Both the position numbers and the translations under genes were made by a program. The notes below the pieces were generated by a model. It searched no databases. It saw only the letters and a list, made by a program, of their open reading frames with translations, and had not been told where the DNA came from. Of a stretch of 60,263 nucleotides of DNA, positions 7,021 through 55,222 are shown one piece after another. Each line of letters begins with the position of its first letter. Positions within the stretch are counted from its first letter, which is position 1. The stretch is from Chara braunii (lineage: Eukaryota > Plantae > Charophyceae). Where the stretch lies: NCBI GenBank assembly GCA_003427395.1, contig BFEA01000037.1, positions 2,180,085-2,240,347 of the forward strand. Reading direction: 5' to 3'.

Positions 7021-7071
<51 letters not shown>

Positions 7072-7999
7072 TGAAGCAACGTATACATCAATACTCTAGA
7101 GGTAGGTTCATTCGTGTGGTGGGAGACTTACCTTGCAACGCGGATGCAGGGTCGCGGCCGCTTGCACTATTGCTCCCCGATGCTACTCAGATGGCAAGGA
7201 GTGTTGAGTCTCCGAACCGAGTCGCTATACCTCGCAAGGCAACCACGCCGGGAATGCGCTGTTGTATTTGAACCCACTACCACCGTGACAAGGCGCGATC
7301 GCTTTCCCTGAACCTTACAGGATGAGGATCCCAAGGCTAGGAGTAGGAAACAGGTAAGTTGCCTTCACCTCCCTCCTCTCTCCTCTTTCTCCGTCTTCTT
7401 CTCCTTCTTCTTCCCTCTTTCTCGTTCGTCTCTCTCTTTTCCCCTCCAAGCCGTGCTCCCTCTCTTCTCCTCTGCGTGTCTCCCTACTGCGCACCGCCTC
7501 CCTGTTCGTTCGACAGCCATTCCCGGTCGCAGTGTCCCGTTCTGTCAGCTTTCTTGCGCGCATCCCTCTATGCGCCCACCTCGCTATTCATTTCTGCTTT
7601 TCCCCATAGTCCCTTTGGTTCTTTCCTTGCACCATGTCTCTCGCGTATGTGCGAGTAATCGCATTTGGTGTAGTAGCTCCGAGCGACCGGTCTGATAGCT
7701 ACCTTAGCAAGCCCGTTGCAAGCTCCTTAGGATGAACCTGCCCCGACTTCGAGCGAAGATTCACTAATAGTGAATCTTTGAATCAGCAAAAATCTCGGGG
7801 AAAAAAAAATAAAAAAAAATCTAACTACTATCCGCCCCAGTCGTTCCAAGTGTCGGTTACCTGTCACAGGGGCGGAGCCTTTATGCTTCAACCCCAACTA
7901 CTTTCAATTTGCAGATCGCGAGTTCGAGTGGCTGCTACCCAGGGTCGGGGCAAAATACTGTTGAGCTTCCTGTCAAAAAGGAGTTAGTCTCGGCGGCCG

Positions 8000-8064
8000 G
8001 TAGGCTTCGATCCCCGTACCCTTCACTTCTAAGGCCAATACCGAAACCTACTGAGCTAGCTCCC
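8000..8064 (-). ncRNA. tRNA-derived Pol III-like cassette (A box and B box) in 3' LTR of element 1
   Basis: Minus strand GGGAGC TAGCTCAGTAGG TTTCGGTA TTGGC CTTAGAA GTGAA GGGTA CGGGG ATCGAAG CCTAC: A box, 7-nt CU-NNN-A loop, B-box-like GGATCGAAGCC. A T5 run follows ~20 nt downstream. Confidence 0.65.
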
Positions 8065-9068
8065 ATTCTTAACAAAATGGGAGCAATTCCTGTACACGTA
8101 TTGCAGTGTGGCCTAGTCCAACTAGTGGACCGGACCCATTTCTAATTTTCTCGTGTTTGTACACTAGTTAGCCTGTGTATCTGTCTAAGCGCTTGTTGGC
8201 TTGAGTGTGCGCAAATGACACTTTCTTGACCGGAAGCCCCGACGGACCGGTACTTTCCCGTGGTTGCGTCATCGAGGGCTGCCGCGAGGAAACACCCAAG
8301 TAGCGGGTAGGCTGATACTATACCTAGTAAAGGTAGATGTACCGAGTACTTGAGGCCGAACAAGCCGGCATTTTGCGTGTCATAGATGTACCCTGTCATA
8401 ACAGTAACCAAATCAACCCCTCGACCTTCCTGGTTGAAGGATATAAGTGTCGATCCTAATTATCACAGTGTGTGTCATAATGATGCACGAGCTCATACGA
8501 AATTCTGAGTTCAGATTAATTCCTTCGAGGTGGTCGGCACAACCGACCTGCCGACTGCAAAATCACGGCCAAATACCCTTGTAAGGGTATTTGGTCCGAC
8601 AGTATCCCAGGCCCTATTAAGCGACGTCTCCATCGCCTGGAGAACTATATGCAAACAAAACATGTTTTCCGACAAACAAATTTGTCAAATCCGAATCCTG
8701 GAATGAAATGTGGTTTAGGATTGACATCGTCACCTCACTTTTCAGTATCCGGGTTTAAGAACACACGTAAGTTATCCCCTGATTTGTAAACCGGCAGTTC
8801 CTCCATGCTCCTTGAGATCTTCTGATCCCTCCTCTGCCCTCCCTTTCTCAAGGTTGGTCCAGAGGGACCTGTCATCCTTCCTCTCTTAGCCATGGCCACT
8901 TCTCTTCAATGGTCACGCCTGCACACAGAGAGGGAGCAATGACAGGTACAAGGATCGACCATCATCATCAAGGCAACACTTCACATCATCAACATAGGCA
9001 TGACAAGACACCCTTCACTTGTGCTTATACATATATATATATATGTATATAGTCATATATGTATATAA

Positions 9069-10400: not shown

Positions 10401-10430
10401 TTCTAGGTAGAACCCATCATAATCCTCTCT

Positions 10431-15310: not shown

Positions 15311-15329
15311 AGTTCGTCCAGAGGTACCC

Positions 15330-16080: not shown

Positions 16081-16199
16081 TTGATACCCTGTTTACACAA
16101 CCATACAAAGAACAACTTTTACTTTTTAGTCGATTATCCAATTCCTTTAGGCATAATTCCAACTTTCTTATTTCCTAATCTTACCATTTTTCCCTAGGT

Positions 16200-17838: not shown

Positions 17839-17856
17839 TCCCCGGCAACGGCGCCA
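17839..17856 (-). promoter_or_regulatory. Primer-binding site complementary to tRNA-Asp 3' end
   Basis: Minus strand reads ...CGACA GG TGGCGCCGTTGCCGGGGA, the complement of the plant tRNA-Asp 3' end UCCCCGGCAACGGCGCCA. Confidence 0.92.
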
Positions 17857-26933: not shown

Positions 26934-27880
26934 TGAAGCAACGTATACATCGATACTCTAGAGGTAGGTTCATTCGTGTGATGGGAGACTTACCTTGCAA
27001 CGAGGATGCTGGGCTGTGGTCGCCTGCACTATTGCTCCCCGATGCCACTCAAATGGCAAGGAGTGTTGATTCTCCTAACTGAGTCACTATACCTCGCAAG
27101 GCAACCACGCCCGGAATGCGCCGTTGTATTTGAACCCACTACCACCGCGACAAGGCGCAATCGCTTTCCCTAGACCTTACAGGATGAGGATGCCAAGGCT
27201 AGGAGTAGAAAACAGGTAAGTTGCCTTCACCTCCCTCCTCTCTCCTCTTTTTCCTTCTTCTTCTCCTTCTTCTCCTTCTTCTCCTTCTTTTTCCCTCTTT
27301 CTCGTTCGTCGCTCTCTTTTCCCCTCCAAGCCGTGCTCCCTCTCTTCTCCTCTGCGTGTCTCCCTACTGCGCACCGCCTCCCTGTTCGTTCGCCAGCCGT
27401 TCCCGGTCGTAGTGTCCCGCTCTGTCAGCTTTCTCACTCTCATCCCTCCATGCGCCCACCTCGCTATTGATTTCTGTTGTTCCCCATAGTCCCCTTTGTT
27501 TTTTCCTTGCACCGTGTCTCTCGCGTTTGTGCAAGTAATCCCATTTGGTGCAGTAGCCCCGAGCGACCGGTTTGATCGCTACCTTAGCCAGCCCGTTGCA
27601 AGCTCCCTAGGATAAACCTGCCCCGACTCCGAGCGAAGATTCACTAACAGTGAATCTTTGAATCAACAAAAATCTCGGAAAAGAAAAAAAACAAAAGAAA
27701 ATCTAACTACTATCCGCCCAGTCGTTCCAACTGTCAGTTACCTGTCACAGGGGCGGAGCCCTTATGCTTCAAGCCCAACTACTTTCAATCTGCAGATCGC
27801 GAGTTCGAGTCGCTGCTACCCAAGGTGGGGGCAAAATACTATTGAGCTTCATGTCAAAATGGAGCTAGTCTCGGTGGCCG

Positions 27881-27944
27881 GTAGGCTTGATCCCCGTACC
27901 CTTCACTTCTAAGGCCAATACCGAAACCTACTGAGCTAGCTTCC
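27881..27944 (-). ncRNA. tRNA-derived cassette, 5' LTR copy (1-nt deletion in B box)
   Basis: Paralog of 8000-8064. Confidence 0.6.
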
Positions 27945-29497
27945 ATTCTTGACAGAATGGGAGCAATTCCTGTATAGGTATTAAAGTGTGGCCTAGTCCA
28001 ACTAGTGGACCGGACCCATTTCTAATTTTCTTGTGTTTGTACACTAGTTAGCCTATGTATCTGTCTGAGCGTTTGTCGGCTTGAGTGTGCGCAAAGGACA
28101 CTTTCTTGACCGGAAGGCCCGACAGACCGGTACTTTCCCATGGTTGCGTCATCGAGGGCCGCCGCGAGGAAACACCCAAGTAGCGGGTAGGCTGATACTA
28201 TACCTTGTAAAGGTAGATGTGTCGAGTACTTGAGGCCGAACAAGCCGACATTTTGTGTGTCATAGATGTACCCTATCATGACAGTAACCAAATCAACCCC
28301 TCGACCTTCCTGGTCGAAGGATATCAGTGTCGATCCTAACTATCACAGTGTGTGCCATAATGATGCACGAGCTCATACGAAATTCTAAGTTCAGATTAAT
28401 TCCTTCGAGGTGGTCGGCACAACTGACCTGCCGACTGCAAAATCACGGCCAAATACCCTTGTAAGGGTATTTGGTCCGACAACACGCAGAGGTTGGAAGA
28501 GCTTGCGCGGGGGTAGTGCACGCTCGACCGACTGGAGATGGCTCGAGGGAAGTAGAGGAGAAATTGTGCGGTGAAAGCAGGTGTGGTAACACGAAGGTGG
28601 AGCGCGGGCAGAAGTGGCTGCGCGCAACAATGAATGAAGGAGATAGTGCGTGGGAGAAGATCGAGAAGGGGGTGACAACACGGAGGAAAGAGATGGCCGC
28701 ACGGTAGAAGGAGAGCGTGGGAAGGTAGCGCAAGCGGGCAAGAAGAAGAATAGTTGCGCTAGTAGGATGAAGAAGATAGCATGGTGCGTGGATCGCAAGG
28801 GAAGCAGAGCACACAAGAGCAGAGCAAGAAGGAGATGGCCGCTCGGTGAATGAAAAAATACAGTGCGCGACTGCAGGCGATGGCAACTGGGAGAATAGCG
28901 ACATAGCGGGGGAAGGAGAAGAAGTAGAAGGGAGAAGAAAAAGAAGTAGAAGGGAGAAGAAGAAGAAGAAGTAGAAGGGAAAAGAAGAAGAAGAGGAAGG
29001 AGAGATAAAGAAGAAGAAAAAGAAGAAGAAGAAGAAGAAAAAGAAGAAGAAGAAGGACAAGAAGAAGAAGAAGAAGAAGAAGGAGAGAGGCCAGGGAAAT
29101 GTGACTTACCCGTCACCCGGCCGGCATGTTGGAACGTGGGCTTGTGTCGGTCGAGCTCTGTGCGATCGTCACGGAATGTTGCACATTGCTGCGGAGCGGA
29201 AAGCAGCCAGCTTTCAACGACAGGGGCGGTGACGACGACGATGACAAGAGAGAGATCAGCTAAGTCTTCTATCAAGCAACAAGCACCGGGTTCTTCGATC
29301 GATAGAGTGAACAGAGACTAATGAACCTATCACTAGAACATGGGAAGTCTACACTATTGCTATGTGTGTGTGCGAGTGAGTGTGTGTGTGAATCGCGGTG
29401 AGTTTCATACTAATGCCATCGACAGGATGAGCAAAATCGAATGAATGTACAGCAAAAACACGAAAATATATATCACAAAGTGCATCCGTGCATATGC

Positions 29498-37380: not shown

Positions 37381-38106
37381 ATGCCTTACGCGATGCAGGT
37401 TTCCAAGGTCGAGTCACCCGTAAGAAACTGTGCTGGAGTAGAAATGACACTGCCAAAAGGAAGAGGCAGAGCGGACAGTAGCGAGGCATGGTGGGGGAAC
37501 TCGCTGGAAAATAAAGCTTTTACGTGGGTAGAGACGAGCTGGGGTACGGTTGAAGAATGTAGTGTTTTGAGAGTCACGCTATATCTTTCATCTCGTCTCT
37601 GGCATAGTCATGGAATGAACCTCATTCAAGGAGGAGAAGCTTATCTTAGACAGCTTACGGGAATGGCAGAAGCGGCTCCCAATGTTTGGGGCCGAAGAGG
37701 TCAATGACAAAATGCAAAGAAAGTTAGGGAAGAAGTCAAAATGTGACCAACCCAGGACTTTGTCCTTCCTACCTGCCATATTAGAGTCACGCTCAATGAC
37801 TCTATTATCAACGAAGGGTTTAATGGTCAAGCAAGGGTTGAGTTGGCCGCAGAAGCTGCTCTAATGGTACCTAATAAGGGGTATGATTTTTCCACCTCCC
37901 ATTTGATATATTGCTTATACTTGGAGATGGGTCCCGAACTAGCGAAAAAAGATTTTAGGAACGTTTTGTCCATTATAGATGCATATGCCCGAACTTGCTT
38001 TATGGAGGAAAGGTTTGGGTATTGGCAAAAGTTGAAGGAGGAGGTTTGCACGGGGATCTGTGTGGATGGTATTCCCACCATGTTTAGTTTCGTTTATAAA
38101 TTCTAG
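37381..38106 (+). pseudogene. Accessory ORF copy A of element 2 (frameshifted)
   Basis: ORFs 37381-37707 and 37843-38106: MTLPKG..WWG..AFTWVETSW..RVTLYLSSRLW..IYCLYLEMGPEL..YWQKLKEEV. Confidence 0.82.
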
Positions 38107-38492
38107 ATTGGGACTAGGTGACGGTAAGCAAAACGGAGGAAGAAGAGAGGGGATTTGTATTCTAAGAGTGATAGGATATGGTGCTATGATAATATGAGAA
38201 TATGAGGGGCCATAAGGGGAAGATGAGGAAGTTGAAGGATGGCAATTGTTTGTCTAAGTTGCCAAAGGAAAAAGGAGTAATGAATGGGAGTCCTGAGAAG
38301 GGAAGGATATGATATGAAGAGGGAGGAAACATTAGGATAAAACGGTCATGTCTCTAACAGGGTTAAGAAAATTAGGAGTTATTAACTATGGTAAGAGGAG
38401 ACATGTCGACACTGACCGGACTTACACATAGGTATTGTGTGCACTTTTTGTCTTTTTCTTTGTATCACTCGGGCTACCAAAGGTCGCTCAAC

Positions 38493-39240
38493 ATGTCATA
38501 CGCCGATCAGAGATTTGAGGTTGAATTGTCGGTTCGTACTCACCAGGGATTGACGATGTCATTGCCACGGGGTATGAGTGAAAGGGAGGAAGAAATCGCC
38601 ACATGGTGGAGCACCTCCATTGTGCCCGAAGCATTTGTGTGGGTAGAAATTGAGCACACCCCGGAGAGAGAGTATAATAATTCGAGCAACCCGGTATCTT
38701 TCATCACACTTGTGGAGGATGCATGGGGTAGATTTGGTTGTAGGACATAGTCAACCCCTGTCTAGGTATATCCTGATTACGGGGGCAATTCTTGAGGATA
38801 AAATTCGAGAGGCGAGTTGGGGGGAATTTCGACCCATTATATTTTTTGCTTATCCCACCGATTATATAATGACCACTCTTCCAGACTTCATCATTGATGA
38901 GGTCTTCAAAGGACACGCTAAAGTGGAACAAGCAGCCTTGGTTGCCGTAGCCGTACCTCAGGGGGGGTACGGATTTTTCACGCCTCAGACTCTTTATTGC
39001 CTATATTTGGAGATGAGACCAGAGTTGGCTAACAGAGGTTTTGAGGAGATTCTTTCCACGGTAGATGCTTACGTTCGTATCCACTTTATGGAACCAAGAC
39101 AAATTTATTGGGAAAAGCTTAAGGTTGAGGTACAAATCAAGGCATGTATCGACGGTATCCCTATATTGTTCGGAATGGTGTATGACTCCTGCACGGGAGA
39201 CTGGGTATCTGCAGAAGAAATTGGAAGGGTAGGATGGTAG
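38493..39240 (+). pseudogene. Accessory ORF copy B of element 2 (one frameshift near 38660)
   Basis: ORFs 38388-38750 and 38650-39240: MSLPRG..WWST..AFVWVE..YLSSHLW..TTLPDFIIDEVF..LYCLYLEMRPEL..YWEKLKVEV. Confidence 0.85.
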
Positions 39241-39545
39241 AGAAACTAAAATTTATTCAAAGGTAAGGTTAGAACCAATCCCGTTTTTGTCATACAAAAG
39301 AAAGGTCAACTCGATTATTTAAGCGTGGTAGGGGTAGTGATTGGGACATGTGAACTGGAGAAACTAGTGTATGTTAGTCAATGGGTAGGAATAAAGAAGA
39401 GGTCATGGATGATATCTCGGAATGTGAAAAGAGCATAAGGTAAAACTCAAAAAAGAGAAAAATTGAGAAAACTGAAAGTAATCTAAAAACTCATTGTTTT
39501 TTTGTGCGTATATAAAAAACAGATTGACTGAGGACTGTGCGAAGA

Positions 39546-41520
39546 ATGGGAGACGTTAATGGGACAGAAGGACAGCGGTCCATAACTGCAGCCGAGATCG
39601 CACGACTACTGGATAATCGGAATGTCAAAAAATCTCAACTGCCGAGGATAAAAAAAATTCCCTTCAAAGGAGAACGGGGTCTCAGTGGCTATGGAACATG
39701 TCTTCAACCGACTAACACCAACAAAAAAGTTCGCTCAATTATTTGAGTATGTATGGTGGGAGTTTCGTCCAGAGATCGAGAAGATTGTGGCCGATGCCTA
39801 AAGGAACTGGACTGGTTCCAAGAAAGAGATGCAATGAAAGTATGAATTGGGGGACGGATTGTTAACAATCGACCAACTTCACAACATCGACTGGAATGAT
39901 TTCACTACGATAGGGGCGTTTGCAACAACCTTCGAAAAAATGGCGGAACGAGTTTCGGGATTTTCAAAGGAGATGCAGTGTGTTATTTTTCTGGAAAAAA
40001 ATTCGGGTTATGAGACTATGAAACTAACTCGTGAATAAGCGACGGGGGGGGAAACATTTTGGGAGATGATAAAAAGAATTTATTGTCTCGGGATTTGGAT
40101 CAGGTATTCCACCATCAGGTAAAGATGGAAAGGAAGAGAAGGAAGGAAGTATGTGTTATCCAAGGAGCAGATTCGGCTCTAGGAGGGGTGTTAAGTAGTG
40201 TAGTAACTCAACTGAAGAAATTAAAGAATAAAGTGGAGTCAGAAAAAGTAATGGCAGTCGGACAAGCGACAAACAAAAGGAGATACGGAGAGGAAGATGA
40301 AGGGAATAAAGAAGGGGAGAAACCTGAGCAGGCAATACAATCTAAGAAAACCCAAAAGCAAAACCAAAATCAGGCATCGAGGAAGCAAGGAGCTGGAAAG
40401 GGGCAAGATTCGCAGCAAGCTGTGATACCAAGTGTTCCAAGAACACCAACCCCTTCATCTCAATTTGGACCTTGGTCGATCGTGGCTCCTATGGGGGTTT
40501 GGCCTTGGCCTGGATACTACCCCGGGAATCAATTACCAGGTTTCAGACAAATAGGGATGTACCCAAACTTACCCCAAATGCAAGAAGTTAGGTTAGGACT
40601 ATCACAAGGCCGAGGAACAGATGACAGTCAATCACAACACGCTCTGCCGCCACAAGATAACCCAGGGAAAAATCAGTTTCAAGGGCAAGGATATGGATAT
40701 GGACATGGTAGAGGGAGAAATGAAGGAAGAAGAAATGGTCAAGGAGGAAGAGGATTTGGAGGAAGACGAAACGGCGAACAAGGAGGAAATTGGGGCAATC
40801 AAGGAGGAACTCAGTCTGGAAACTACAATCAGGTGAGTTTCAATCAGATTGGACAATGATACAATCAAGGTTATGGTTAGGGCTATGGTCAGAGCTATAA
40901 CCAGAACTATGGTGGAGGTTTTGGTATGAGTGATGGACAGTGGAACGGTCAAGGGTCAGGAAGAGGATGTATAGACTACAGTGAGTGCACTTGTACGCAC
41001 TGTCAAATCACGAGTCATACAGTGAAAATATATTATGTTCGAAAGATGGATGAGCAGGACGGATTAATCACATCAATCATATATGGGGATGTATCCGATA
41101 AGCAAGGAAGACGGATTGATCCGAACATCCCCGGAGGAACAAGGAAGGAAGCACTCAGGGTTGCGGGGCTTGGACCCAGTGCCCCAGCCATGTTTCGTAT
41201 ATGGTAGGAGAAAGAGGATCCGTTTGTTCGAGTGGAAGACATAACCGAGTTAAGTGAACAGTTGGAGGAAGAGTTGAGGATAGATCAAAAGAGAGAAGAA
41301 ACTCATTTGATCGACCTTAAGCCTGAGGAGGAAAAAACGCCTAAGGAATCAACAAAGGAAACAATGAGAAGAATGAAAGATTTAATAGATACGATGGAAA
41401 GATTGAATACGAGGATAACAGGCATATGCGGAGAAGTTAGAGACTGAGAGATGAGGATTCCGCATGTATTCACTATGAGTCAAGGAAAAGAGGATGATGA
41501 GCTGAGAGTACCTAACCCCA
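39546..41520 (+). pseudogene. gag of element 2
   Basis: MGDVNGTEG..IPFKGER, NDFTTIGAFATTF, G/N/Q-rich tract, degenerate zinc knuckle CTHCQITSH. Multiple stops. Confidence 0.88.
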
Positions 41521-41699
41521 GAGCTATGAACCAGCTCAGGCTCCTTTGTCACCTCTGGGTGAAGCTTCTATTTATATAGAAGAAGATGAGGAAGATCAAG
41601 ATGAATTACCCAGGGGAGAAGAGGACAAATGCGCTGAACAGAGAGCCAAGAAACATAAGCAGGATATTAAGGAAGGAAAGGAAAAGACTGAGGAAAAAT

Positions 41700-42446
41700 C
41701 AAAGAAGAAGTAGAGGTACCAGACGTCGATTGAAGAAGAGGTAGATCTGAAAAATTTAGTAAACAAACTTCTTGAGGGACATAACGAGTTGTTGAATCTG
41801 AAGGAGATTTTGGCAACAACACAAAAACTCAGAGAATTAATTAAGGCCAAGTTGGCGCGAAAGAGAGTAGCGACGGTAAGGTTGGGAGATTTAATTCCCA
41901 AGGAGACAAATTGGACAATCGTTGGGAGCAAGATGGACTGGAAGTCTATAGGGACGGGATCCATTGATGTCAATATCAGAGGAAAAAGGTGCCCTGGGAT
42001 GGTAGATACTGGGGCAGAGATGAATATTATGAATTTGAAAACGATTGAAAGACCCGGGTTGAAAATCGATAAGAGAGATTGTGGGTATCTCAATGGGGCC
42101 AGTGAAAAGTCGGGGTTTTGCGTCAAATGTGATTGTGGAAGTAGGACGGGTCAAGGTCCACGCTTGCTTCTACATCATGCCTAACTTAGATCTTCCCACA
42201 TTATTGGGGAGATCATTCTTATCACGATCAGAGACCCTCATCATGAACGAGCATGACGGGACCATGTTCGTGATTCTATGTGACCCTGCATGTGGGAACT
42301 TCGAAGTCATTACCTGTAAAAATACAGGTCCCCACAGTTCAAAAAACCGCCTCGATGTTGGGTCATATACCTTTGAGGAATCTGAGCATAGAAGGAAGGA
42401 ACTAGAATGGGGGTCAGACGAGGAAAATGAGGAAGAAGAGAATTAA
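41700..42446 (+). pseudogene. Aspartic protease region of element 2
   Basis: MVDTGAEMNI and LLGRSFL. Frameshift near 42120. Confidence 0.9.
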
Positions 42447-42508
42447 GGGTTAGCATTGAGTTTGGCTAACATTGACCAAGCAATGTACATGGTCTTCGTG
42501 TATGAGCA

Positions 42509-43270
42509 GTGGTCCACTTGGATCTATTGACAATGTCATTCAGACTAGGGGGATACAACTATATCTTTGATGCCAGAGACAATCTTACAGGATTTGTTGA
42601 TGGGAAAGTCATCCGGACTAAGGCATGGGCAGTCTTGGCCGAGTGCATCAAGGAATATTACCTCCGATATCCCTTTGTGGTAGAATTCACGATGGACAGA
42701 TGATCGGAATTTACAAGCGGGGAAGTGAAGGAATTGTTTGACGATCTTGGAGTAATCGCCAATTATACAACCAGAGTTCATCCTCAAGCAAATGCACCAG
42801 TGGAAAGGGGGCATAGTACCATCATAAAATTACTAGCCAAATGGACAACTGGGAAGCTGAATCTCTGGCTAAAATTCATGTGAACTGTATTCTTCGTTGA
42901 GAACGTCATTGTCATTTGAAGAATTACTTGACATCAGGGCAAGGCAAGTCATTGTCACCGAAGAGAGGATTAAAAAAGCAGTCGAAAAGGTGACTTACAA
43001 CCGTGGAAAAAACAAAAAAAAATGGAACAGGCTTCCTCGGGTACGAGCTGAACCACTGGAAATCCGGGACGAAGTATTGTTGTATGATTTGTCCCTGGAG
43101 AAGCAATGATCAAGAAAGTTGAACAAGAGATGGTTGAGACCTTACAGAGTAAGGCGTCGGGGAATCATGAGGCCTACGTACTTGAAGAAATGGATGGGAC
43201 GCCAAGGAGGGACTGGATTTCTGGATCCAGGATGAAGAAATTCAAAGTAAGGCAAGATGTGAGTAGATAA
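42509..43270 (+). pseudogene. Integrase core/C-terminus of element 2 (RT, RNase H and Zn finger deleted)
   Basis: VHLDLL..YNYIFDARDNLTGFVDGK..FTMDR directly follows the post-protease linker. Confidence 0.9.
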
Positions 43271-44489
43271 AAAATAGAAAATAAAAAGAAAGATTAATAA
43301 TGGTATTGTAAAAGCTTTGTAATGACTTTTCCTTTGCGAATATTTTGTTGTTCCCTAGCTACTGACTCATCCTTTCACCTGTCACCCTCTTTCCTTTTCT
43401 ATGTGCAGGCGTTGTCGAGCACATCGGCCCCCGTGCGAACGAGGGTCCTCCCGACCACGTCACGCAAGATTTACACAATCAAACAAAAACACGGAGACAA
43501 CTTCGAGACGGCGTGAAATAGTTTCCACGAGCCGCCGAGGCGGTGCGCGGTCGCGTCGTCCCTTCGCCTATCTAGCCGAGTGCGCCAGTTGGTACATCCC
43601 GTGGTCCCCTACGACAGGATAGGTTCCCGCGGGGCATAAGCTTGCTTCTCTAAGGGGCTGTCACCATTCTCAGGGGCGTATCCCTACCGAGCTACTGACC
43701 CACATGCGAAATTTTTTTTACATGCAGTTGCAGAGGTGGGTCAGCCGAGGGCGTTTGCTCGCATGATGTAGTATAGGTATACGTGATTAAACGTCTGTTG
43801 AACATGGACGTCGTCCGTCACTTAGGGCGCCGATCTCCTAAGGATGAAGCGTATGCCGATCGACTACAGCGGTTTCACTCAAGTATAGAAACCAACAACA
43901 ACTTGTCTCTAGTCCCTTGCACATAATTTCCCCATACAAATACAGATATATATGTAATTTATTCAGACGAAATCACAAAAAATAATACACATGAAGTCAC
44001 TCTTTCAGCTCAACAATTATAGCACAATTCTTTAATAGGTTTGGTCTTACGAAAAAGGATCATGCTATCGTACTTTCCTACTCGTCGTCAATATGGTCAA
44101 CACATAAATTTCATTTTTCAAGCCTTTTAAGTTAAAGTCAAACTTTTTCCCAAGTCTGGATTTAGAACAACATTATGCCTACAAAAGCATGTCATGGGTA
44201 GCTTCTGCAAGTAAATACTACTGCTACCATGCAAATCAACAAGTAATCTGGTTCCTGGTCGAAGTTTGAACTCTCGGTTCGACCCCACCTCTGCTATCGT
44301 CTCATTCTTGCTTCTGACATGCGTCTTTACGTATGTGGTTACCCCTCAATGCATAAGCATGATAGTGTCATCATCGGGGTAATCCAGATACTATCCATTT
44401 GGCGGTTCTATCTACTTAATGTGTTTTTATTTTGTGTTTTATGATTATCTCGTGAAGTCATGAGTCATATGACTTCCTCAACAGGACAA

Positions 44490-45610
44490 GTCAATGCGTA
44501 GGTATTGTCTGAAATCCAAGTTGGATATCAGAAAACGGTGTCTATCCCAAGTAGATCTGCCGTCCTCCGCGCGCCTGAGCCTCCAATGAATCCAATCGTG
44601 GGAGCTCACTGTCATCGAATGTTAGGGTAGCCCTCTGTCCACCTCGCGTGACTTTGATAATTTGAGTGTCATAGAAAGAGGTCATCCGTAAAGGTAACCT
44701 CCAAACTATGACTCGTAGAGGCCGACTAAGTCCAAATAGATGTTAAGTCTCTGTGTCCTGGATCCGGACGACGCCGAAGCGTCTGCCGGACAAGGTAATC
44801 CTGATACTCATAATGACTCGGGAGAGACATTGGAGATTACTCGCACGGTGAAAATACAATGTGTACCTATAAAATTCCTCGGGAGTTCGAGGTGTGTTTC
44901 CCCGAAAATCCGCGCAAGTGCTAGGGAAAAATCCCTCTCCATTTCGGAGTAGGCCGATGAAGCCGATCCACTCGGTGGGAGAACCATCTCAAACTCGTAA
45001 AAGTTGCTCTGCTCTTCTGATGAGATCGTCCTCAAGCGTATCGCGAACCAGCACGTACCTCGGGATGGTCATGTCTCGTCGAGCTCCAGGCATCTGCGTG
45101 TCAGAAGAAAACTTCATCAGTTGAGTAATCGTTCCATGAGTTCATCCTCCTCATCGTGTCATGCATATTCTGAGAATGGTTCAACTCGTAGAATGATGAA
45201 CCTATTCGCCCATACTCGTCTTATGTGATATACGCCAAAGAAAGGACCCTGTTGTTCGTTTATCGAAAGTACGGTATAAACGAAAGTCAGCCTTATCTCA
45301 GAAATTTCGTCCATTCGCGGGTTTATCTCATATGGTTGCATCACCACTAAGTTCATGTTGACGACAATGCGAACTCATAGTGAAGGATGTCCAGTCCGGT
45401 TCTTGATCTGAAAATAAGTGGTCTAGGCGGGTTTTGCGGACTACCATCCCAGAACCATGGAACATCCTCCTCAAAATATAATTCATCCGAATTGAAGATG
45501 GTTCGCCCTACTCTCTCTAATCTTTCTCCATTACGTCTTGAGGACTCGGCCCATTCTGCCGCTATGTCACAATTGTGGAAAAGGTGACAGACCATCGTTC
45601 CTGCTGCCAT
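44490..45610 (-). pseudogene. Decayed ORF of unknown function inside LTR3
   Basis: Consecutive protein-like fragments 45353-45610, 45159-45356, 44808-45035. The ATG directly follows a TTCTTTTCAG acceptor. Confidence 0.5.
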
Positions 45611-46729
45611 CTGAAAAGAACGATGAGAGTAGTTATGTTAAATTTCGGTAGCTAAGACTGAGTATTATTCTTACATTCTTATTTCCATCGGTTCGTGCTT
45701 CTTCTGGCACGACCATCCTCGATAAAAGTGTCTAACTGCACTCGACGTAAACTAGTATGACACGAACTGGGCTGCTTGGCACCAGTTCCCCATGCGTCAG
45801 TGACTCTTAATATGGCCACCAAAAGGGTATACTACAATAGTTCTCCCTTACGCGATCCACTCCGAGTCGATAACAGGGCCGGCTCCTAAGGCAACGAACC
45901 CCCGCCTCAAATCCCTCATAGAAAAAGGAAAGGAATCTACCACGGTGAGCAAACGACCTCTTGTCGCCTGACGTCAAGAGCAACTTAGACGAAAAATTAT
46001 CACAGAAGAAAAAGTCATTCAGACGGACGAGCATAGATGGAGAGGGTCATTCGACAAAGAACTGGTGACCTTGGGAAAAATCTATGGTCATTCATGCTTT
46101 TATTCTTAGTGATCGTTTTTTTTTTTTTCGTCATCTTCTTCTTTCCATCTCGGTTCACCACATACATACAAATATAGAGGAGTGAGAGCAACCAAGTTTC
46201 AGCCATCTCATGGTCAACCCACTTCCATTTCAATAAGCCACACCTGCAGTCGGATCAAACGACAAGTTCAACAAAAAAAAAAACAATGCAAACCCAAACT
46301 CGAGTCAGACTCACACTCATACGCGCAAACACACATTTCCTCTACCTTTCAGTGAACATTCAAAGAGCAGGGTCGAGCAAAATGTGGTTTCACTCAGGCG
46401 TGAAAGGGTCTGAGTCAAACTGGTTGTCCACTGACCTTGAGTGAAGTTGTACGGCACACTCAAGAAGACCGTATAGAATTACGCCCCTTTTGACGAGAAG
46501 GTAATCGTCCTCAGTCGTCAGCAAAGTGATCAACACCACTCTCTTGCTGCGACCACCTGCCACATCACTCCCTCACTTACTTTTCAGTAAGTGTGGCTGC
46601 CAATTGCCTCCGCCGTCGCCACATTACTGCGTCATTAAGTCCACGCTACCTCAAAATACACCACTCTAGCGGCACCTTCACTGCGCCAATGCCCAGTCGT
46701 TGCTCAACGCAAAAATACCGCCAACACCG

Positions 46730-47200
46730 TTGTAAATCCTATGTCGTTGTTGTGAAAAAAATTCGGCAGCTCTTCCACACTACTGTCGTCAAACTTAGTG
46801 CTGTCACTGCAAAAATCCGGCAGCGCTTCCGCACCACCGCCGTCAATCTTAGTGCCGCCGCCGCAAAAATTTGGTAGCGCTTCCGCACCACCGCTGTCAA
46901 TCTTAGTGTCGCCGCCGCAAAAATTCGGCAGCGCTTCCGCACCGCCACTGTTAATCTTAGTGCCACTGCCACAAAAATTTGGCAGCGCTTCCGCACCACC
47001 GCTGTCAATCTTAGTGCCACCGCCACATAAAACACCACCGCTGTCAATCTTAGTGCCGCCGCTGCAAAAATTTGGCAACACTTCCGAACCACCGCCTCAA
47101 AACCTGCGTGGCCGCTGCAAAAGTTCGGCAACACTTCCGTACCACCGCTGTAAAACCTACGTGGCCGCCGCCTTGCCGCTGTAAACTTTTGGCAGCACTT
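46730..47200 (+). repeat. 54-bp GC-rich minisatellite
   Basis: CAGCGCTTCCGCACCACCGCTGTCAATCTTAGTGCCGCCGCCGCAAAAATTTGG units at 46821, 46875, 46929, 46983. Confidence 0.9.
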
Positions 47201-49101
47201 CCCCGCCGTAGTGGAAAAATGGCAGGCCAAAATTAGTAAAATTTGGGCCCCGGACCAAAATTTTCACTGTGCCGCATTGCCGCAGTCCCGCAGCGTCCCT
47301 GGCTCCGTCCCGTGGGACCGGCACCAGCCAGAGGGGAGGGGAACAGAGTGTTCCCTTCCTTGGCTATGGCTGCCCCGCCTCTCCTCTCGCTCCACTGCAG
47401 TCCTCCAGCCTCCTCCTTGAAGTCCTCAAGCAGCACCTCAACTCCTCAGCATTACTCAAGTGTGCACGTCACACAATTGACAGCACGAGTGCTTCTGTGT
47501 GGCAGCTGAGGACAGCTGCCTGTTTTATACTGGCTGAGGAGGGTTGGACGTCACTCCAGCTCCCAGGCAAAATCGCGGGCTCACAGTGAGCCCTTGATCT
47601 GACCAAGATCCAGGGCTAACTGTGGCCGCACCACAGCCACAGCCTTAGTGTGGGGCAGCTTCTTTAACTGCCCTATTTTATTTTCTTTTTTCTTTTTTCC
47701 AACTATCTCGGAATCTCGCGAGATGGCTGGGTTCCGGCCATTTCCAAATCTGTTTTTCTTTTATTTTTCTGATAAGGGGTTCGAAAGATACAACCCCTTT
47801 AAGTTTGATGTATTTGGACCTTTTTTCCAGGGCAGATACATCGGGGAAAAGGTTGTACCTAGCCTTTTCCTTTGTGGTCCTTCAATTTCCAGACTCCCTT
47901 AAAAGACGGGAGCCTGACTGTTACCTGCCAGAGGTAGCACCACGTGAGGACAAGTGTCCTCACACAAAATAAAGAGAAGAACAAAAGAAAAAAAATAAAA
48001 AACGAACTTTTAAATTTTGTTGCACCTGGCTCTAACCTCAGCCAGGTGCATGTTATTGCATGCAACAACTCTTCCACCTTTTGCTCTACCCTCCCCTGAA
48101 AACGAGGAGGGCATTGGTCAGTTTGGGAGGAGTAGGACCTCCTCCTCCCAACTCTCACGTCCCTCCTCCCTTCCTCTCTCCAACCAACTTCCTTTTCCCA
48201 CTCCCACGCGCACGCTGTAGGCCGCGAGATTCTAGATCTCACGGCCACTAATGTTCACACTAACCCATAGTGGGAGCTCATCTTGCTCTCATACAGTCGA
48301 AAAGACTGTTCTTTTGCTCTTTTGCCCCCATGAGGCAGTTCCCTCGTTTTTTTTTTTTTTTTTTTTTTTTTTGTTTCAGCGTCTGAGTTGGCGCCTGTTG
48401 CTCAAGCAACGGTGCCTATTCCTTTCTCTGAACGAGATAGGGGGGGGGTTAAAGTGTGGGAATGTGTATCTTCATGTTCTAGTAGGAGATTCATTCGATT
48501 TTGTTCATCCTATCATTCGACATTTTCGTGGGGCCAACCACAGGTAGGTTGGCAACCCCCTTCCCCTCTTTCTCTCTCTCCCTCTAAGAACCGCCCAAGG
48601 CGTGTGCAGAGAGCCCTTTCCGTCTCAAGTACTAAGTCCCAAAGCCTGCCCCGGATTTAGCTGCGTTATTGCGGCATATCCGTTCGTTTTTTCCCATCCT
48701 GGTAGAAGTACCCAGCCCGTTCGTCGAAACGAATGGGCACTTCAAAGAGTAGCAACAACAAAAAAAATCTAAAGAAAAAACAAATCTAAAGAAAAGAAAT
48801 CTAAAAAAAATATAACGAATAACAGAAAAAAAAAAAAAAAACTTACCTTCTTTTGCTGAACGGTCGCCCGTTACTTCAGGCGACTGCAGCCAGTCTGGGG
48901 ATATAAGTCCCCAGTTACTCCTCTTTGCGCCATGTGGCGCGCAGGGTGCAGGTTAGTTTTTTTTTTTTTTTCGCTAATAATAAAACCGTTGGCACTTGTT
49001 ATGTGCCCTCAAGTACATTTTCGAGCTCCATGTGGCAATGTTTGTTTTTTTCTTATTTATTTATTTGTATATATATATTTTTTATTATATTTTTTTCTTT
49101 A

Positions 49102-49143
49102 CTCGATTTATATGTGTCATCCTTGCGCAAGGGTCATGGTAAT
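49102..49143 (-). ncRNA. U6 snRNA-derived fragment (ISL and 3' part), not a full U6 gene
   Basis: ATTACCATGACCCTTGCGCAAGGATGACACATATAAATCGAG vs recalled plant U6 ATTAGCATGGCCCCTGCGCAAGGATGACACGCATAAATCGAG: 37/42 by hand. No ACAGAGA box. Confidence 0.85.
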
Positions 49144-49256
49144 GTCTACGCGGTTGTTCCCAGCCACTAGATCTTATCGATCGTACGGCCGGAAACGGCC
49201 GCGTCATAGAAACCGGGCTGCTCCAAAAAGAAGCTATGCCCAGAGGTGCGGTTCCT

Positions 49257-49318
49257 CCAATTCGATCCCGGTATCTGTCGGGTGACAGTCCTGTACCGTG
49301 ACCTACTGGGCTAGCTCC
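49257..49318 (-). ncRNA. tRNA-derived Pol III-like cassette in LTR3 (CTGTCAC, Asp-type loop)
   Basis: GGAGC TAGCCCAGTAGG TCACGGTA CAGGA CTGTCAC CCGAC AGATA CCGGG ATCGAAT TGG, homologous to 8000-8064. Confidence 0.65.
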
Positions 49319-49719
49319 TCAGTGATAGGAGCGGCTCTTCTATAAGAAGAGTTGCCCAGTCTCTATTCCCTCCTGTTGGGGCTTTGCAGGCCCTGTCTGC
49401 CTATGCTTCGCATGCCCACCCTACCTGTGGCCTAGTAGTCCCCGCCTGTCTGTGGTCTAGCAGGCCTTGCCGGCCGGTGGCCTAGCAGGCTCTGCCTGCC
49501 TGCCGCTTCCTCGTGGATGGCTGCCCAGCCAAAGCTCCAGGGCCACCCTGGCTCGAGGTCAACCCGACGGCCCAGAAACAAAACCTTGTTATTCATCTCG
49601 CGCCGTGACCCCATACCCGGCGCATCCCTCTTTTTAGCCCACTTAGGCCCTGAATCTCGTGGTTATACAGCCACGCGACATTATTTAAGGTAGAATAGGT
49701 CGAGCTTTAATCTTTCCAT

Positions 49720-50580
49720 GGTCACTCATCCCTGCGGTCTTGCCAAAACTGAGGATGAGTTGGAACTTTCCAATAGCATGTCTATTTCTTCAGACCAATT
49801 ACCCCAAACTTACATGAAAATTCGGACTTCGTCCGACATTGAAAATATAGGGCAGATACCCTTTGTCAGGGTTTCTGTCCCGATAACATTCCCAAGCCGT
49901 ATTGAATGACTTCCACATCATTCATTTTTATCCAATAACACAATATCAGAGGTGTTTACCAGGAAAGTTCTGGTAGGGAACCTCCTCTTTCCATCAATTA
50001 TAGGTTCAAATGATTGGTTTGATGCCTTCAATTTTTGTAGACTTCTTTTCGAATGGTTCCAGCATCATCGCACAGGCGGCCACTCAAAATTTTGTCTCTC
50101 AGAATGATACCAAAAACCCTCCAGCTAGATCCAACATAATCCAATCAATTGATACTACTATGTTCATTTGGGGAATTCCCTTAACTTTCGGGAATCTAAC
50201 CCGGGTCTCTTGAGTTTACGGGGATGCTCTTCACAACACCTCGACGTACACAACGCCGCCGGGAATTTAACTTGTGTCTCTCATATACACAAGGATACTC
50301 ATATTATACTAAGGTCAGGGAAGACATCAAAATAAAAGGCCTCAAGTATTTCATCATCATTCACTGAAAAATTTGCGTTTAACCTATTTCCCCAAATGAT
50401 CCAGGATTAACCCCGAACAGGTCTTTCAAAAATGTATCAATTTCTTAGAATTTAACCATTCATGAAAGAAATCATCCATCCACTTCTTCCTGTCATTCAT
50501 CCAACAGTGTGAGTTCATCCTTCTGATACTCGACAACATATCAAGCAGAACTATTCTGACTCTGATGTGATTAGCGTCGA
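49720..50580 (-). pseudogene. Possible decayed coding sequence, unidentified
   Basis: Minus-strand protein-like fragments (RIVLLDMLSSIRRMNSHCWMNDRKKWMDDFFHEWLN) broken by stops. No motif recognised. Confidence 0.3.
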
Positions 50581-50581
50581 G

Positions 50582-52449
50582 CCAAATGGGAGATGAGTCA
50601 TGCATGTGCGTGAGACTTGCTCAAATACACGCTTGAAGCTCATGAAACCAACCAAGAATGTAATGGAATATCATCATGTGAGAGATGAGCTATGCATGTG
50701 AAGGAGACTTGCATGTGTTTTTACATGCTTGAAGCTCATGAAAGCAACCAAGATTGCGATGGAACATCATCATGTGAGNNNNNNNNNNNNNNNNNNNNNN
50801 NNNNNNNNNNNNNNNNNNNNNNNNNNNNNNNNNNNNNNNNNNNNNNNNNNNNNNNNNNNNNNNNNNNNNNNNNNNNNNNNNNNNNNNNNNNNNNNNNNNN
50901 NNNNNNNNNNNNNNNNNNNNNNNNNNNNNNNNNNNNNNNNNNNNNNNNNNNNNNNNNNNNNNNNNNNNNNNNNNNNNNNNNNNNNNNNNNNNNNNNNNNN
51001 NNNNNNNNNNNNNNNNNNNNNNNNNNNNNNNNNNNNNNNNNNNNNNNNNNNNNNNNNNNNNNNNNNNNNNNNNNNNNNNNNNNNNNNNNNNNNNNNNNNN
51101 NNNNNNNNNNNNNNNNNNNNNNNNNNNNNNNNNNNNNNNNNNNNNNNNNNNNNNNNNNNNNNNNNNNNNNNNNNNNNNNNNNNNNNNNNNNNNNNNNNNN
51201 NNNNNNNNNNNNNNNNNNNNNNNNNNNNNNNNNNNNNNNNNNNNNNNNNNNNNNNNNNNNNNNNNNNNNNNNNNNNNNNNNNNNNNNNNNNNNNNNNNNN
51301 NNNNNNNNNNNNNNNNNNNNNNNNNNNNNNNNNNNNNNNNNNNNNNNNNNNNNNNNNNNNNNNNNNNNNNNNNNNNNNNNNNNNNNNNNNNNNNNNNNNN
51401 NNNNNNNNNNNNNNNNNNNNNNNNNNNNNNNNNNNNNNNNNNNNNNNNNNNNNNNNNNTCACATGGGAGAGGAGAAATGGACTGAACAAGAGAAAATCAT
51501 AATCAAAACACCAGATTAAGCATAGACAAGTGTTGCGATTTGCTCCTAAGTGACGAAGTGGAGAGAAAGTGAGAAAAGAGTGAGTGCAACTCACTCAGAT
51601 TCATGAATTCACAAGGGGGGAAGTGGCGATTCACATGGGAGAGGAGAAATTGACTAAACAAGGGGCAATCATCATCAAAACACTAGATTAAGTATGAACA
51701 AGTGTTGCGATTTACTCCCAAGTGAAGAAGTGGAGAGAGAGTGCGAAAAAAGTGGCTGCAACTCACTCAAATGCATGAATTCACAGGGGGGAAGTGACGC
51801 CTTACATGGAGAGGAGAAATGGGCTAAAAAAAAGGCAAGCATCATTAAAATACTAGATTAAGCATGGACAAGTGTTGCGATTTGCTCCTAAGTGAAGAAG
51901 TGGAGAGAGAGTGAGAAAAGAGTGAGTGCAACTCACTCAAATGCGTGAATTCACAACGGGGGAAGTGAAGCTTCACATGGGAGAGAAGAAATGGACTAAA
52001 CAGAGGTAATCATCATCAAAACACTAGATTAAGCATAGATTAGTGTTGCAGTTTGCTCCTAAGTGAAGTAGTGCAGAGAAAGTGAGAAAAGAGTAAGTGC
52101 AACTCACTCAAATGCATGAATTCACAAGGGGGGAAGTGACGATTCGCATGGGAGAGGAGAAATGAACTACACAAGAGGCAATCATCATCAAAACACTAGA
52201 TTAAGCATAGACAAGTGTTGTGATTTGCTCCTAAGTGAAGCAGTGGAGAGAAAGTGAGAAAAGAGTGAGTGCAACTCACCCAAATGCATGAATTCGCAAG
52301 GGGGGAAGTGGCGATTCACATGGGAGTGGAGAAAGAGTCCATGGGGAGACCATCACTCGTGAAAAGGCTTCCTATCATCTACTCTAAACTTCGGAAGGTT
52401 CCTATGGAGAGAGACAATAAAGAGGAGAGAAAGGAAGTGTAGAAGAGAG
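50582..52449 (+). repeat. Composite satellite block 1: ~92-bp units, gap, ~172-bp units, unique tail
   Basis: GAGATGAGTCATGCA at 92-nt spacing. CACATGGGAGAGGAGAAAT-type motif at 51460, 51632, 51803, 51974, 52145, 52317. Confidence 0.9.
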
Positions 52450-52665
52450 TCCGTTTGCAACTGACTGGTCGGGTCTCGACCCCACTCATTTGCAACTGAC
52501 TCGGCTTGCCTGCACGTCGCCCCTTCTTCCCGCCTTCCTCATGTGTGCGATCCTTCTTCCCGCCTTCCTCATTATTCTGACGGGTTGCCTTACGCTCCCC
52601 CTATCCCCGAGTTCCACTCACACGTCTACCCTTTTCATTTTCATTTCCGCCCGCTGACACGAGGC

Positions 52666-53500
52666 TCATACAACCTCTCTTTCTGCCATCCTAAACAACT
52701 CGTCCGGCGTGGTCCCTAGTACCAAGTCTATGACCATTGCGTTCTCCCCATCCTGTGACAAGTAGACCCATCCTCGGACTTCCACTGTCACTCGGAATTC
52801 CAAATCTATTAAGCTTGGCGACAACCTTGTCAAACTGACTTTAGTCCATATCATTCCTATCCAAAGGAACGTGTCCTTCTCGTCAAACATTACAGTTTGT
52901 TAGGCTGGTTCTAGATTTGTCCACGTTCCTTCTTCCAGGAGGACGTCCGATACCCCATCCTTTACATCTACCAGTATTTCCGGGCCGCTGGAATAGATTG
53001 GGGATGACAGCCACCACACCATCTTGTTTTTCCAGCACCCGATTCCTTGCCTCACACGCAGTGGTCCCCCTTCGCCAACCGATAAGCTAAAGCCCCGCCT
53101 GAGGAGACGTTTCGCATCCCGCCTGGGCAAGGTGTCGAGCCATGCTCGGTCTGCCCGGGAGAGAGTGCTACTAATCAACCGACGAGACCAACTCCTGTCC
53201 GACAGCTCGGTGGTTCGACCTCCGCATATGAGACCCGGCGGCACTACAAAAGAACGACGTTTCACCAACCCTCACCAGCTGGTGCAGACCCATCCTTTCC
53301 TTCCGAAAGGCAGGACGCTCAGTTCCCTTTATGCAGATCACAAGTCCCAAGTGGGACACACATAGTACAAGTGTCTTCCCCTTGGTGCACCTAGCGCTTC
53401 CTACCCATAACTCACGGTTCTCTCTCAGGACCGTGAGTGTCACTTCCCTTACGTCTATACACAGTGGTTTGTTCCTTTTCGTGAGCGTCTTCGAGGGTGA
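52666..53500 (-). pseudogene. Possible decayed TE-derived coding fragment, unidentified
   Basis: Adjacent minus-strand ORF fragments 52666-52890, 52900-53268, 53171-53443. No diagnostic motif. Confidence 0.3.
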
Positions 53501-55222
53501 GCTAGTTTTCTTAGGAGTCTAGCAACTCCCTTCATTTCCCTCATCTTCATTTGTCTGTCCTTTCGTAGGGTAGGATTGTTCCTTTTTGATAACCCTTCAT
53601 ATTCATGCAGGTTCCTTCAAGCACTTTCAAGTGTATAGTGCATGAGTCCGCTGGGCTCAAAAGAAGTAGAGAGAAGGGCACCCAATCGGCCGGATCACTC
53701 CGCCGCGGGATTTTCATTGGACCCCGTTTGAAGTCGAAGCGCCAACCGCCTGTCAGGTAACCGGAGCCCTTCTTTCATACGAAGAGGAAAGGTTGACCTG
53801 CGACTTGCCCGAGGCTCCTCCGGACTGGCGAACACCAGCACCAGAAGAGGGGGGCTAGAACCACTCCACAAAGGAGTAAGCTGATCAAGTGTGTAACATG
53901 CATGTTATACCTCCAGGCCTGACCATGCCATGCGTTCAGCCACTCTCAAATTTAATTCTCTCAAAGGGAAGAGCAAGCCCAAGTCCAACTTCTTTCTCTT
54001 TGGTTGTGTACATGGTTATGCATAGGGCGCCCCCTTCGGAATCGCATGGGTCAGTTTAACCCAATACCCGACACCTCCACCATTTTTGTAGGGCCATACC
54101 CCGATAGACTTTCGAGCCTTGGTCGACCCCACTGCGGGTCCCAGTTGGCTCGGCCCGCCCACAATCATGCTCAGGGCGCGGGCCGTTCGTCCCAGGGTTA
54201 CCCCCACCTAGTGCTTTGAGATGGATGGGGGTGGGTCATCGAGCGAGAGAGCTTTGACATTGGGGATGTAGCTCAGCCCTCGCGTCGGGTGGCAGTCTCG
54301 CTGGTCATTCCGCAAACGCTGATTTTCTTTTGATTTTCGGTTGTGTTTTCAAGCAAATGCTCCTTTCAATACGCAAGCAGTTCAGGGGTTCTTTGAGAGT
54401 TTTTCTTCTTTTGTGCGTAGGCTAAGCGTCATCCTTAGACCACGCACCATTTCCCTAAACACAGCATTCCTATGGCGTCATCGGGGTGTGGCAATTTTGT
54501 CTTTCCCCTCGCCGCAACACACTCCTCGTGTCGCATGTATTCCTATGGGAGCAAGCCCCTTAGTCTTTTCGGGGCCCTCATATGCATGCACATGCCACTT
54601 CACATTTCGTTCGGCAAGAGTCTCACTCCTCTTTTTCATTCACCCTCCAAACCTCATGCACAATGGTTTCTTTCATGAGTCGATTTTAGACTAAGGGTCC
54701 CATACCCCCTTTGCCCCCTCTTCCCTTTTCCTTTGCCGCCCGGTTTCTCCCGGCCCGGTCCCGCTCGAGGCATCCCAAGGCTTTACTCACTTGCACAATC
54801 TCACACAAAGGCAAAGACCGATACAATCCCCTATTGGGGTCAACACAACCCTTCCCGCATGCCTAACTTTCTTTTTTCTTTGGCTTCTCTTTATTCTCCT
54901 TCCTTAACTCAATCAGTCCATCCTCTTCTCATAGTCATGCAGTCGGGGAAATGGTTGAGTCAAACTAACCTTTCTTTAAGTACCGACTTGGTCTAGTCCT
55001 TTTTCCGGACTCGACTCCTCTCAATTGCTCCCGTGTCCTTTCCTTTTTCTTCTTGGCGGCACAAGGGACCGGCAGCCCCCCCCCCCCCCCCCCCTTGCCC
55101 ACTTACTCCGCCAAGCGAGGACAAATTTTTTTCACCGTTCGTTCCCTGACAATGTAACAAGTGAGTGCTGAAGGTTTAGTTATATGCCAAGTGGTAGAAG
55201 GGGGAAAGGGTAAGCTAAAAAG

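Follow-up and report, generated by a model that had tools for sequence, protein, structure and literature searches.

The window, i.e., the whole stretch of 60,263 nt of Chara braunii DNA that was analyzed, holds nested Gypsy-type elements, the main parts of which are as follows.

Element 1, minus strand: LTR2 (28481 to about 17858), primer-binding site (PBS, 17856-17839), protease, a weak reverse transcriptase (RT) match, integrase and LTR1
17839..17856, minus strand: PBS of element 1, behind LTR2
From 8601 past the left window end, minus strand: LTR1 of element 1
Element 2, plus strand: PBS near 35810
43413..49885 (approximate boundaries), minus strand: LTR3, about 6.5 kb

LTR1 and LTR2 are 90-94% alike, with an LTR size of 10.6 kb. 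The integrase stretch at 9774-10430 has a single match, a Chara braunii hypothetical protein with 58% identity, and no related integrase locus was found in viral contigs. The PBS at 17839..17856 is presumably of the tRNA-Asp type, and the long Gypsy elements of Chara are those that we take to be named "Chabys", a name for which a literature search returned unrelated papers only. A third Gypsy-type element seems to be nested in element 2, with LTR3 as its 3' LTR. Alignments match the start of LTR3 to those of LTR1, LTR2 and a fourth LTR beginning at 59721, and its 3' part to the LTR ends preceding both PBS sites; its 5' flank is similar to the flank of the 3' LTR1, and no target-site duplication was seen around it. 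The only parts that LTR3 has in common with LTR1 and LTR2 are the start, the end, the tRNA-derived head described below and one further box, and on this sequence comparison the LTR1/2 family is distant from LTR3. The fourth LTR start (59721-60165, plus strand), related to LTR3, is ended by a TC microsatellite before the place where the head would be found.

The stretch combining tRNA- and U6-related sequences is found 535-825 nt inside LTR3 and is probably part of U3, since splice-site-like motifs lie further into the LTR. Its features, together with the homologous units of the two other LTRs, are listed below.

49351-49335 and 49332-49314, minus strand: two short hairpins upstream of the head
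49225..49320, minus strand: predicted Pol III mini-gene of 96 nt (tRNA-derived head, terminal stem and T5 run)
49302..49313, minus strand: A box TAGCCCAGTAGG of LTR3, the form in LTR1 and LTR2 being TAGCTCAGTAGG
49288-49282, minus strand: CTGTCAC loop
49260..49268, minus strand: B-box-like sequence GGATCGAAT
49225-49229, minus strand: T5 run, predicted Pol III terminator
49146..49206, minus strand: body hairpin between terminator and U6 core (z -5.5)
49102..49143, minus strand: U6-derived core, internal stem-loop region
49041..49101, minus strand: A-rich tail
7974..8065, minus strand: homologous Pol III-like unit of LTR1 (nhmmer E 1.5e-6), roughly 540 nt inside the LTR, which starts at 8601
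27855..27945, minus strand: homologous unit of LTR2 (nhmmer E 4.7e-6; LTR start at 28481), with a B box one base short and a T4 run

A first-pass annotation had read the hairpins, the A box, the CTGTCAC loop, the B-box-like sequence, the hairpin-rich body and the A-rich tail from the minus strand, and all of them were found again. The second upstream hairpin (49332-49314) overlaps the 5' end of the head, and the LTR1 head is preceded by an equivalent hairpin with a different loop sequence. In a longer transcript, this second hairpin could, according to the folding model, pair with the 5' end of the head and replace the terminal stem.

Regarding the origin of the head, the best local scores against 58 distinct tRNAs are 50-60, while the best score over the whole tRNA set reached a maximum of 43-47 when each head was shuffled 300 times. 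The tRNA-like head proposed in the first-pass annotation is thus tRNA-derived as to its sequence, but it is not a cloverleaf: ARAGORN predicted 0 genes, Rfam gave no tRNA match, and the predicted fold is a closed rod. When the first 1000 alignment columns of LTR3 versus LTR1 are divided into 50-column windows, conservation is highest in the window of the head, at 68%, the 19 others having 14-56%, and the A and B boxes are the best-kept parts of the head among the three copies. The head lies at an offset of 565 nt from the LTR start in LTR3 versus 540 nt in LTR1, and an HMM built from the three heads detected no fourth head in the window. For the A box, no variant at or above 10% is listed in public contigs, a comparison in which differences near contig ends are not displayed. 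The GATCG form of the B box can also be found in the fetched tRNA-Ala and tRNA-Met genes.

An Asp identity had been assigned to the head on account of the CTGTCAC loop, together with a link to the PBS as the same tRNA type. Some two thirds of the contig depth (1482+389 of 2785) has another letter than LTR3 at 49286, the first base of the anticodon, and the loop at the anticodon position of LTR1 and LTR2 differs from that of LTR3. The best tRNA match of the LTR3 head, which was not pattern-selected, is Glu(CTC), with 39 identities over 58 columns, in a comparison set that held one Asp tRNA only, from a viral contig. The LTR1 and LTR2 heads match best to Ala, then to Met and Ile; the scores of the two tRNA-Ala (L128 and L134) are inflated because the pattern that retrieved them was derived from the heads themselves; tRNAs made up 2 of its 14 matches. 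As far as these sequences go, the Asp anticodon is a feature of the LTR3 copy that is not kept among copies, and both the Asp identity and a self-made primer were rejected, since 49286 varies and the best tRNA match is Glu. The link with the PBS was not supported either: the best match between head and PBS complement is 10/18, in a partial test with a query stretch shifted by 7 nt.

In all three copies, the 5' end of the head is predicted to pair with the bases directly before the T run, and this end-to-end stem forms despite the 15-25 nt that differ between the B box and the stem. The number of end-to-end pairs is 19 in the LTR3 unit, 17 in LTR2 and 13 in LTR1, values reached in 0, 2 and 11 of 200 shuffles, respectively. 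The fold of the LTR3 mini-gene as a whole has a z of -4.3 (0/200 shuffles) and that of the LTR1 and LTR2 units is weak (z -1.4; 19 and 17 of 200 shuffles); LTR3 is rich in strong hairpins, 7 of its 133 windows folding at z <= -4. The T run occupies the same column in the three LTRs, as T5 in LTR1 and T4 in LTR2; in LTR3 it has one T fewer in 77 of the 603 contig depth, and the next T4 on the minus strand comes at 48985 only. The caveat of the first-pass annotation that T5 could terminate Pol III early is reinforced by this position, right behind the terminal stem and shared with a distant LTR family. At 49231, 505 of the 520 depth in public contigs has a base converting a G-U pair of the LTR3 copy to G-C, which perfects the stem, and 28 contigs diverge just past the B box yet end in the complement of the 5' end of the head (agreement 0.62). 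Four minority variants break predicted pairs, all of them in the inner part of the rod. When pairs were counted in fixed columns of the three-copy alignment, 66.7% of the cells were paired and no two-sided change was found, covariation being nil in fixed columns because the bulge sits in a different register. These models predict that Pol III makes a closed RNA some 95 nt long and that 80 nt separate its end from the U6 core. For the head, an LTR-encoded Pol III small RNA, which was one of the options raised in the first-pass annotation, would thus be the best reading of the modeled unit.

It can alternatively be hypothesized that the head acts only as DNA, either as a TFIIIC boundary or as a promoter helper upstream of the Pol II start of the LTR, its RNA being incidental. 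The A and B boxes being the best-kept parts of the head is what such a role would call for, as is the location of the unit 300-450 nt upstream of the opposed 5'-splice-site-like motifs, hence probably in U3. However, a DNA-only role, which is considered improbable, does not account for the retention of the stem's 3' strand in sub-types with different intervening sequence. No RNA data set was among the matches listed for 48880-49800, a result that carries no information on expression. Oligo-dT RNA runs were searched in part (101-nt reads; 6% and 12% of the two runs). Both strands are thinly covered; the head is about 10 reads deep in run X6 and has no reads in run X5, and its cover resembles that of the upstream LTR, with no shared read starts or ends. 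This cover is uninformative because an unadenylated RNA of 95 nt would escape such libraries.

The U6 piece behind the terminator corresponds to the internal stem-loop region, without the ACAGAGA motif and without the last 15 nt or so of U6. The similarity noted by the first-pass annotation is beyond chance: the Rfam RF00026 match at 49145-49085 has E values of 1.1e-5 and 1.3e-6 and a score of 32.5 bits, short of the gathering score of 44 (no sequence in the window attains the gathering score of any Rfam family), and a profile of 78 distinct U6 genes, drawn from at least 125 fetched U6 loci, matches the core with an E of 1.6e-9 and has no other significant match in the window. The identity of 37/42 that had been counted by hand is correct for a minority U6 variant (6 of 126 matches), but versus the plant-type U6 (L003) it is 36/42. 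Five of these six differences are C>T or G>A, a bias that fits decay in methylated repeats, as expected. The change of the AGC triad to ACC had also been reported, yet it is not confirmed as a trait of the family, as 24 contigs leave the window sequence exactly at that base with the U6 letter (at a low agreement of 0.47). Full length, ACAGAGA, AGC triad, 3' U run and gathering score are all missing, and the piece is thus no U6 snRNA gene. Its truncation and its A-rich tail are those of a U6 retropseudogene made by a LINE. A search for direct repeats of at least 7 nt on either side of the U6 piece gave none; if the insertion is old, a target-site duplication may have decayed since. The core in its exact window form matched 0 metagenome stretches, and a degenerate core matched 0 viral contigs.

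The head and the U6 piece can be found together outside the window. In run X1, a 224-nt contig spans 49105-49292 with 29 differences, and in run X4 a 193-nt contig spans 49131-49319 with 25 differences. The LTR-borne nature put forward in the first-pass annotation is supported and the unit is multi-copy; since the two parts are linked in other, diverged public contigs, a one-off retrocopy, or a U6 piece never linked to the head elsewhere, is refuted. In addition, seven joints (all 4 of those listed in one contig comparison and 3 among the best 15 of 66 in the other) link the U6 core to the head, the body or the upstream LTR across sequence that is unaligned at 80%. Each joint is weak when taken alone because its shorter side is only 21-28 nt; together, these sequences suggest that the core is retained better than expected of a passenger. 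The heads of LTR1 and LTR2 lack the U6 piece. From their sequences, head and U6 piece look like two modules rather than one chimeric SINE.

A plausible source of the U6 module can be recognized in the contigs of run X4. Among the best 6 of 81 loose-end groups, 31 contigs run from the core into ordinary U6-like 5' sequence and 31 contigs run from the core into the U6 3' end and then into A-rich sequence (agreement of about 0.5 in both cases); U6 cores with ordinary U6 flanks and A-rich ends point to a pool of A-tailed U6 copies. Judging by such loose ends, many of the core matches are ordinary U6-like copies. In X4, summed contig depth rises from 15 (identical contig) through 134-261 (body) and 1,900-2,700 (head) to 125,000-139,000 (core), whereas a separate comparison gave 17,163 for the core bin in X4 and 9,706 in X1 (body 148, single copy about 7), and 12,459-12,915 in X4 and 6,549-7,107 in X1 for two conserved LTR boxes. 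Summed depth adds overlapping short contigs and gives no copy number; because of this and of the disagreement between the two comparisons, only the order core > head > body was retained.

These depths bear on the hypothesis that selection maintains the U6 core as a non-catalytic U6 mimic, binding U4 or U6-binding proteins as part of a read-through Pol III RNA or of the Pol II RNA of the LTR. The sharp peak of contig depth on the core and the seven joints, which keep it linked to the head or the LTR across unalignable sequence, are in line with a mimic, as are the terminator of only T4 in part of the depth (the 77/603 given above) and the majority variants at 49154 and 49169, which face unpaired bases of the body hairpin and, in our reading, would add pairs. 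However, the depth peak is no copy number and shifts from about 139,000 to 17,163 in X4 between comparisons, many core matches are the ordinary U6-like copies revealed by the loose ends, the majority variants at 49207 and 49214 break the predicted pairing of the body with the U6 3' part, and the piece is absent from LTR1 and LTR2. A selected U6 mimic is thus regarded as unlikely. Unlikelier still in its entirety is the bolder conjecture that a large Chara Gypsy LTR family, in hundreds to thousands of copies, keeps a U6 stem-loop under selection, and that leaky Pol III termination yields a tRNA-headed, non-catalytic U6 mimic engaging U4 or U6 proteins, which would tune host splicing or route the RNA of the element itself.

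With regards to the body hairpin, it may be a remodelled 5' half of U6, a sequence similarity that is not significant: when anchored on the core, it has a p of 0.07, and 78 of 2140 LTR3 windows score equally high. A full-length U6 was rejected at this same p of 0.07. The body is central to another scenario, in which an ancestral LTR took up a native tRNA-U6 tandem gene at once, the body being the remodelled U6 5' half and LTR1 and LTR2 having later lost or scrambled their U6. Such tandems do exist, as a tRNA on the same strand ends 61-150 nt ahead of U6 in 12 of the 125 fetched loci, two of these tRNAs being tRNA-Glu, and the local U6 alignment extends through the body with GGAAC in register. 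Against this stand the non-significant similarity of the 5' half and the lack of any U6 trace behind the LTR1 and LTR2 heads, where a U6 remnant was rejected as not above background (the scores, 24 in the case of LTR1, are attained by 271 and 684 of 1556 background windows). Capture of a tandem in one step is therefore held to be very improbable.

The first-pass annotation had also proposed that head, body, U6 piece and A tail form a single free tRNA/U6 SINE inserted into the LTR. The tRNA-related head with A and B boxes is that of a tRNA-derived SINE, the order of the parts and the A-rich end are SINE-like, and head and U6 piece are linked in other contigs. However, the T5 run at 49229-49225, at the same place in LTR1 and LTR2, would be an internal Pol III terminator, which is foreign to such a SINE; the heads of LTR1 and LTR2 come without U6; the whole unit has no flanking direct repeats of at least 7 nt; and the depth of the body amounts to only some 10-20 single-copy depths. 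Moreover, 42 contigs that leave the window sequence at the 5' end of the head share a flank, namely the upstream hairpins of the LTR (agreement 0.63), and a 5' flank continuing as LTR sequence speaks against a free SINE. In public contigs, no scattered copies with unrelated flanks and target-site duplications were found; rare free copies may exist. A single free SINE is accordingly the scenario to which we give hardly any credence.

The explanation that we favor by a modest degree, when taken as a whole and with its mechanism included, is that LTR3 carries a tRNA-derived predicted Pol III mini-gene and a separately captured U6 piece. The two sequences, their positions, the head and T run common to three LTRs and the linkage of head and U6 piece in other contigs are observed; the mechanism is a proposal. 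TFIIIC would bind the A and B boxes, and Pol III would start near 49320 and stop at the T5 run. The ends of the RNA would then pair into a closed rod of about 95 nt, which would be produced from each intact LTR and apart from the Pol II genomic RNA. By analogy with the Pol III hairpin cassettes of foamy-virus LTRs, and with somewhat less than an even chance within this explanation, the RNA itself would be the selected product, serving as a hairpin decoy or as a small-RNA precursor directed against host silencing. The main alternative role would be that of a TFIIIC-bound boundary shielding the LTR promoter; a role at the RNA level is favored over a pure DNA boundary because the 3' strand of the stem is kept while the spacer changes. 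The U6 piece would likely be a later A-tailed retrocopy, which landed behind the terminator and then spread with the LTR lineage. It would be transcribed only via read-through or within the Pol II RNA, and would be non-catalytic since it is without ACAGAGA.

Adenovirus VA RNA, vault RNA and the rod-folded tRNA-Ala domain of BC1 are Pol III RNAs with a terminal stem. As in these RNAs, the predicted Chara unit has internal A and B boxes, paired 5' and 3' ends and a terminal U run; unlike them, it has no Rfam match, and the analogy is one of architecture only. In Leishmania, tRNA-like boxes reportedly drive a neighboring snRNA gene (PMC4950102).

Closer parallels can be found in LTRs. According to the article on Helenus, Cassandra and Ajax, these non-coding elements of 311-1263 bp bear promoters derived from small RNAs in their LTRs, and their template RNA is proposed to come from the Pol III promoter (TRIMp3; Kojima, 2024; PMC10886601). 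As described there for Helenus, the Chara LTRs contain a tRNA-derived sequence with A and B boxes and no working tRNA (PMC10886601). Unlike Helenus as portrayed in that text, which is miniature (about 0.3-1.3 kb), the Chara LTRs have 6.5-10.6 kb and belong to elements with coding Gypsy-type internal regions, and the Chara head ends in its own stem and T run. A T run located 90 nt past the start argues against Pol III making the template RNA. The word "snRNA" is absent from the main text of PMC10886601. The LTRs of foamy viruses, as reported in PMC3993851, harbor terminated Pol III hairpin genes, demonstrated by northern blotting and sequencing, the RNAs of which are processed to miRNAs. The Chara unit resembles the cassettes described in that report in combining A box, B box, hairpin and terminator within a long LTR and in its predicted transcription apart from genomic RNA; unlike these retroviral cassettes, it is tRNA-derived, belongs to an algal retrotransposon and is a prediction from sequence. 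Regarding the U6 piece, PMC4476161 describes A-tailed, truncated snRNA pseudogenes in mammals, and also a few snRNA copies associated with LTR elements. Unlike the pseudogenes of that account, the Chara piece is without a target-site duplication, its 5' half is missing or remodelled, and it can be found in several diverged LTR copies.

Within these sources, tRNA-like LTR units are known from the miniature Helenus, and what is new is a predicted terminated unit in the multi-kilobase LTRs of coding elements, with a U6 piece behind it. A literature search retrieved no paper on the Chara feature; it covered few subscription journals and no Repbase, which makes it weak evidence for novelty. LTRs with Pol III units have been described in miniature elements, where the units are thought to drive the template RNA of the element itself, and in a few retroviruses, where they give small RNAs. 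If the mini-gene is real, it would be a candidate for a small regulatory RNA encoded by a retrotransposon in the algal relatives of land plants. If the U6 core were selected in the LTRs, a piece of a spliceosomal RNA would have been co-opted by a retrotransposon.

Several other observations were made in the course of the analysis. Among 125 metagenomic U6 loci, 19 have a tRNA gene at most 150 nt upstream of U6, which is on the same strand in 12 of them; the 19 loci are given on the next two lines.

L004, L010, L017, L023, L041, L053, L061, L068, L070, L073: U6 loci with an upstream tRNA
L074, L078, L080, L089, L093, L096, L097, L098, L106: U6 loci with an upstream tRNA, remainder

At 49121-49132, a C>T change turns the U6 loop region of the LTR3 copy into a perfect 12-bp palindrome. 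Words resembling U2 in the body and one resembling U4 near 48670, picked by eye, were discarded, having no Rfam match at E <=10. Further into LTR3, opposed 5'-splice-site-like motifs, each followed by a long T run, can be found at 48840-48975 (GT at 48846 on the minus strand and at 48952 on the plus strand) with three hairpins (z -5.8) between them, and this region is possibly a bidirectional LTR promoter. A box of about 55 nt is present in every LTR type of the window (48460-48515, 5525-5581, 25349-25421, 29397-29475 and 29293-29346). The copy at 48460-48515 has the top DNA depth of the 1.5-kb stretch compared (37,000-54,000 per bin, as summed contig depth) and the top RNA depth, i.e., 166 in run X6, in both directions. 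Its derivation from U6 was rejected as not significant, with 57-346 of 3042 background windows scoring equally high, and an Rfam scan of this box gave no meaningful match. In the internal regions, the RT/RNase H region looks shortened, element 1 (11015-11923) having only a weak RVT_1 match (E 0.025), and in element 2 (42446-42545) the protease is near integrase-like sequence. Both elements have repeated, decayed extra frames (15244-16822 and 37345-39240) upstream of the gag-like region, and these have no Pfam match. Finally, a tandem repeat of about 60 nt can be found in the LTRs of elements 1 and 2 (19458-19939, 20731-20894, 33623-34039 and 1-192), and a different array, with a 54-nt unit, is present in LTR3 at 46722-47210.
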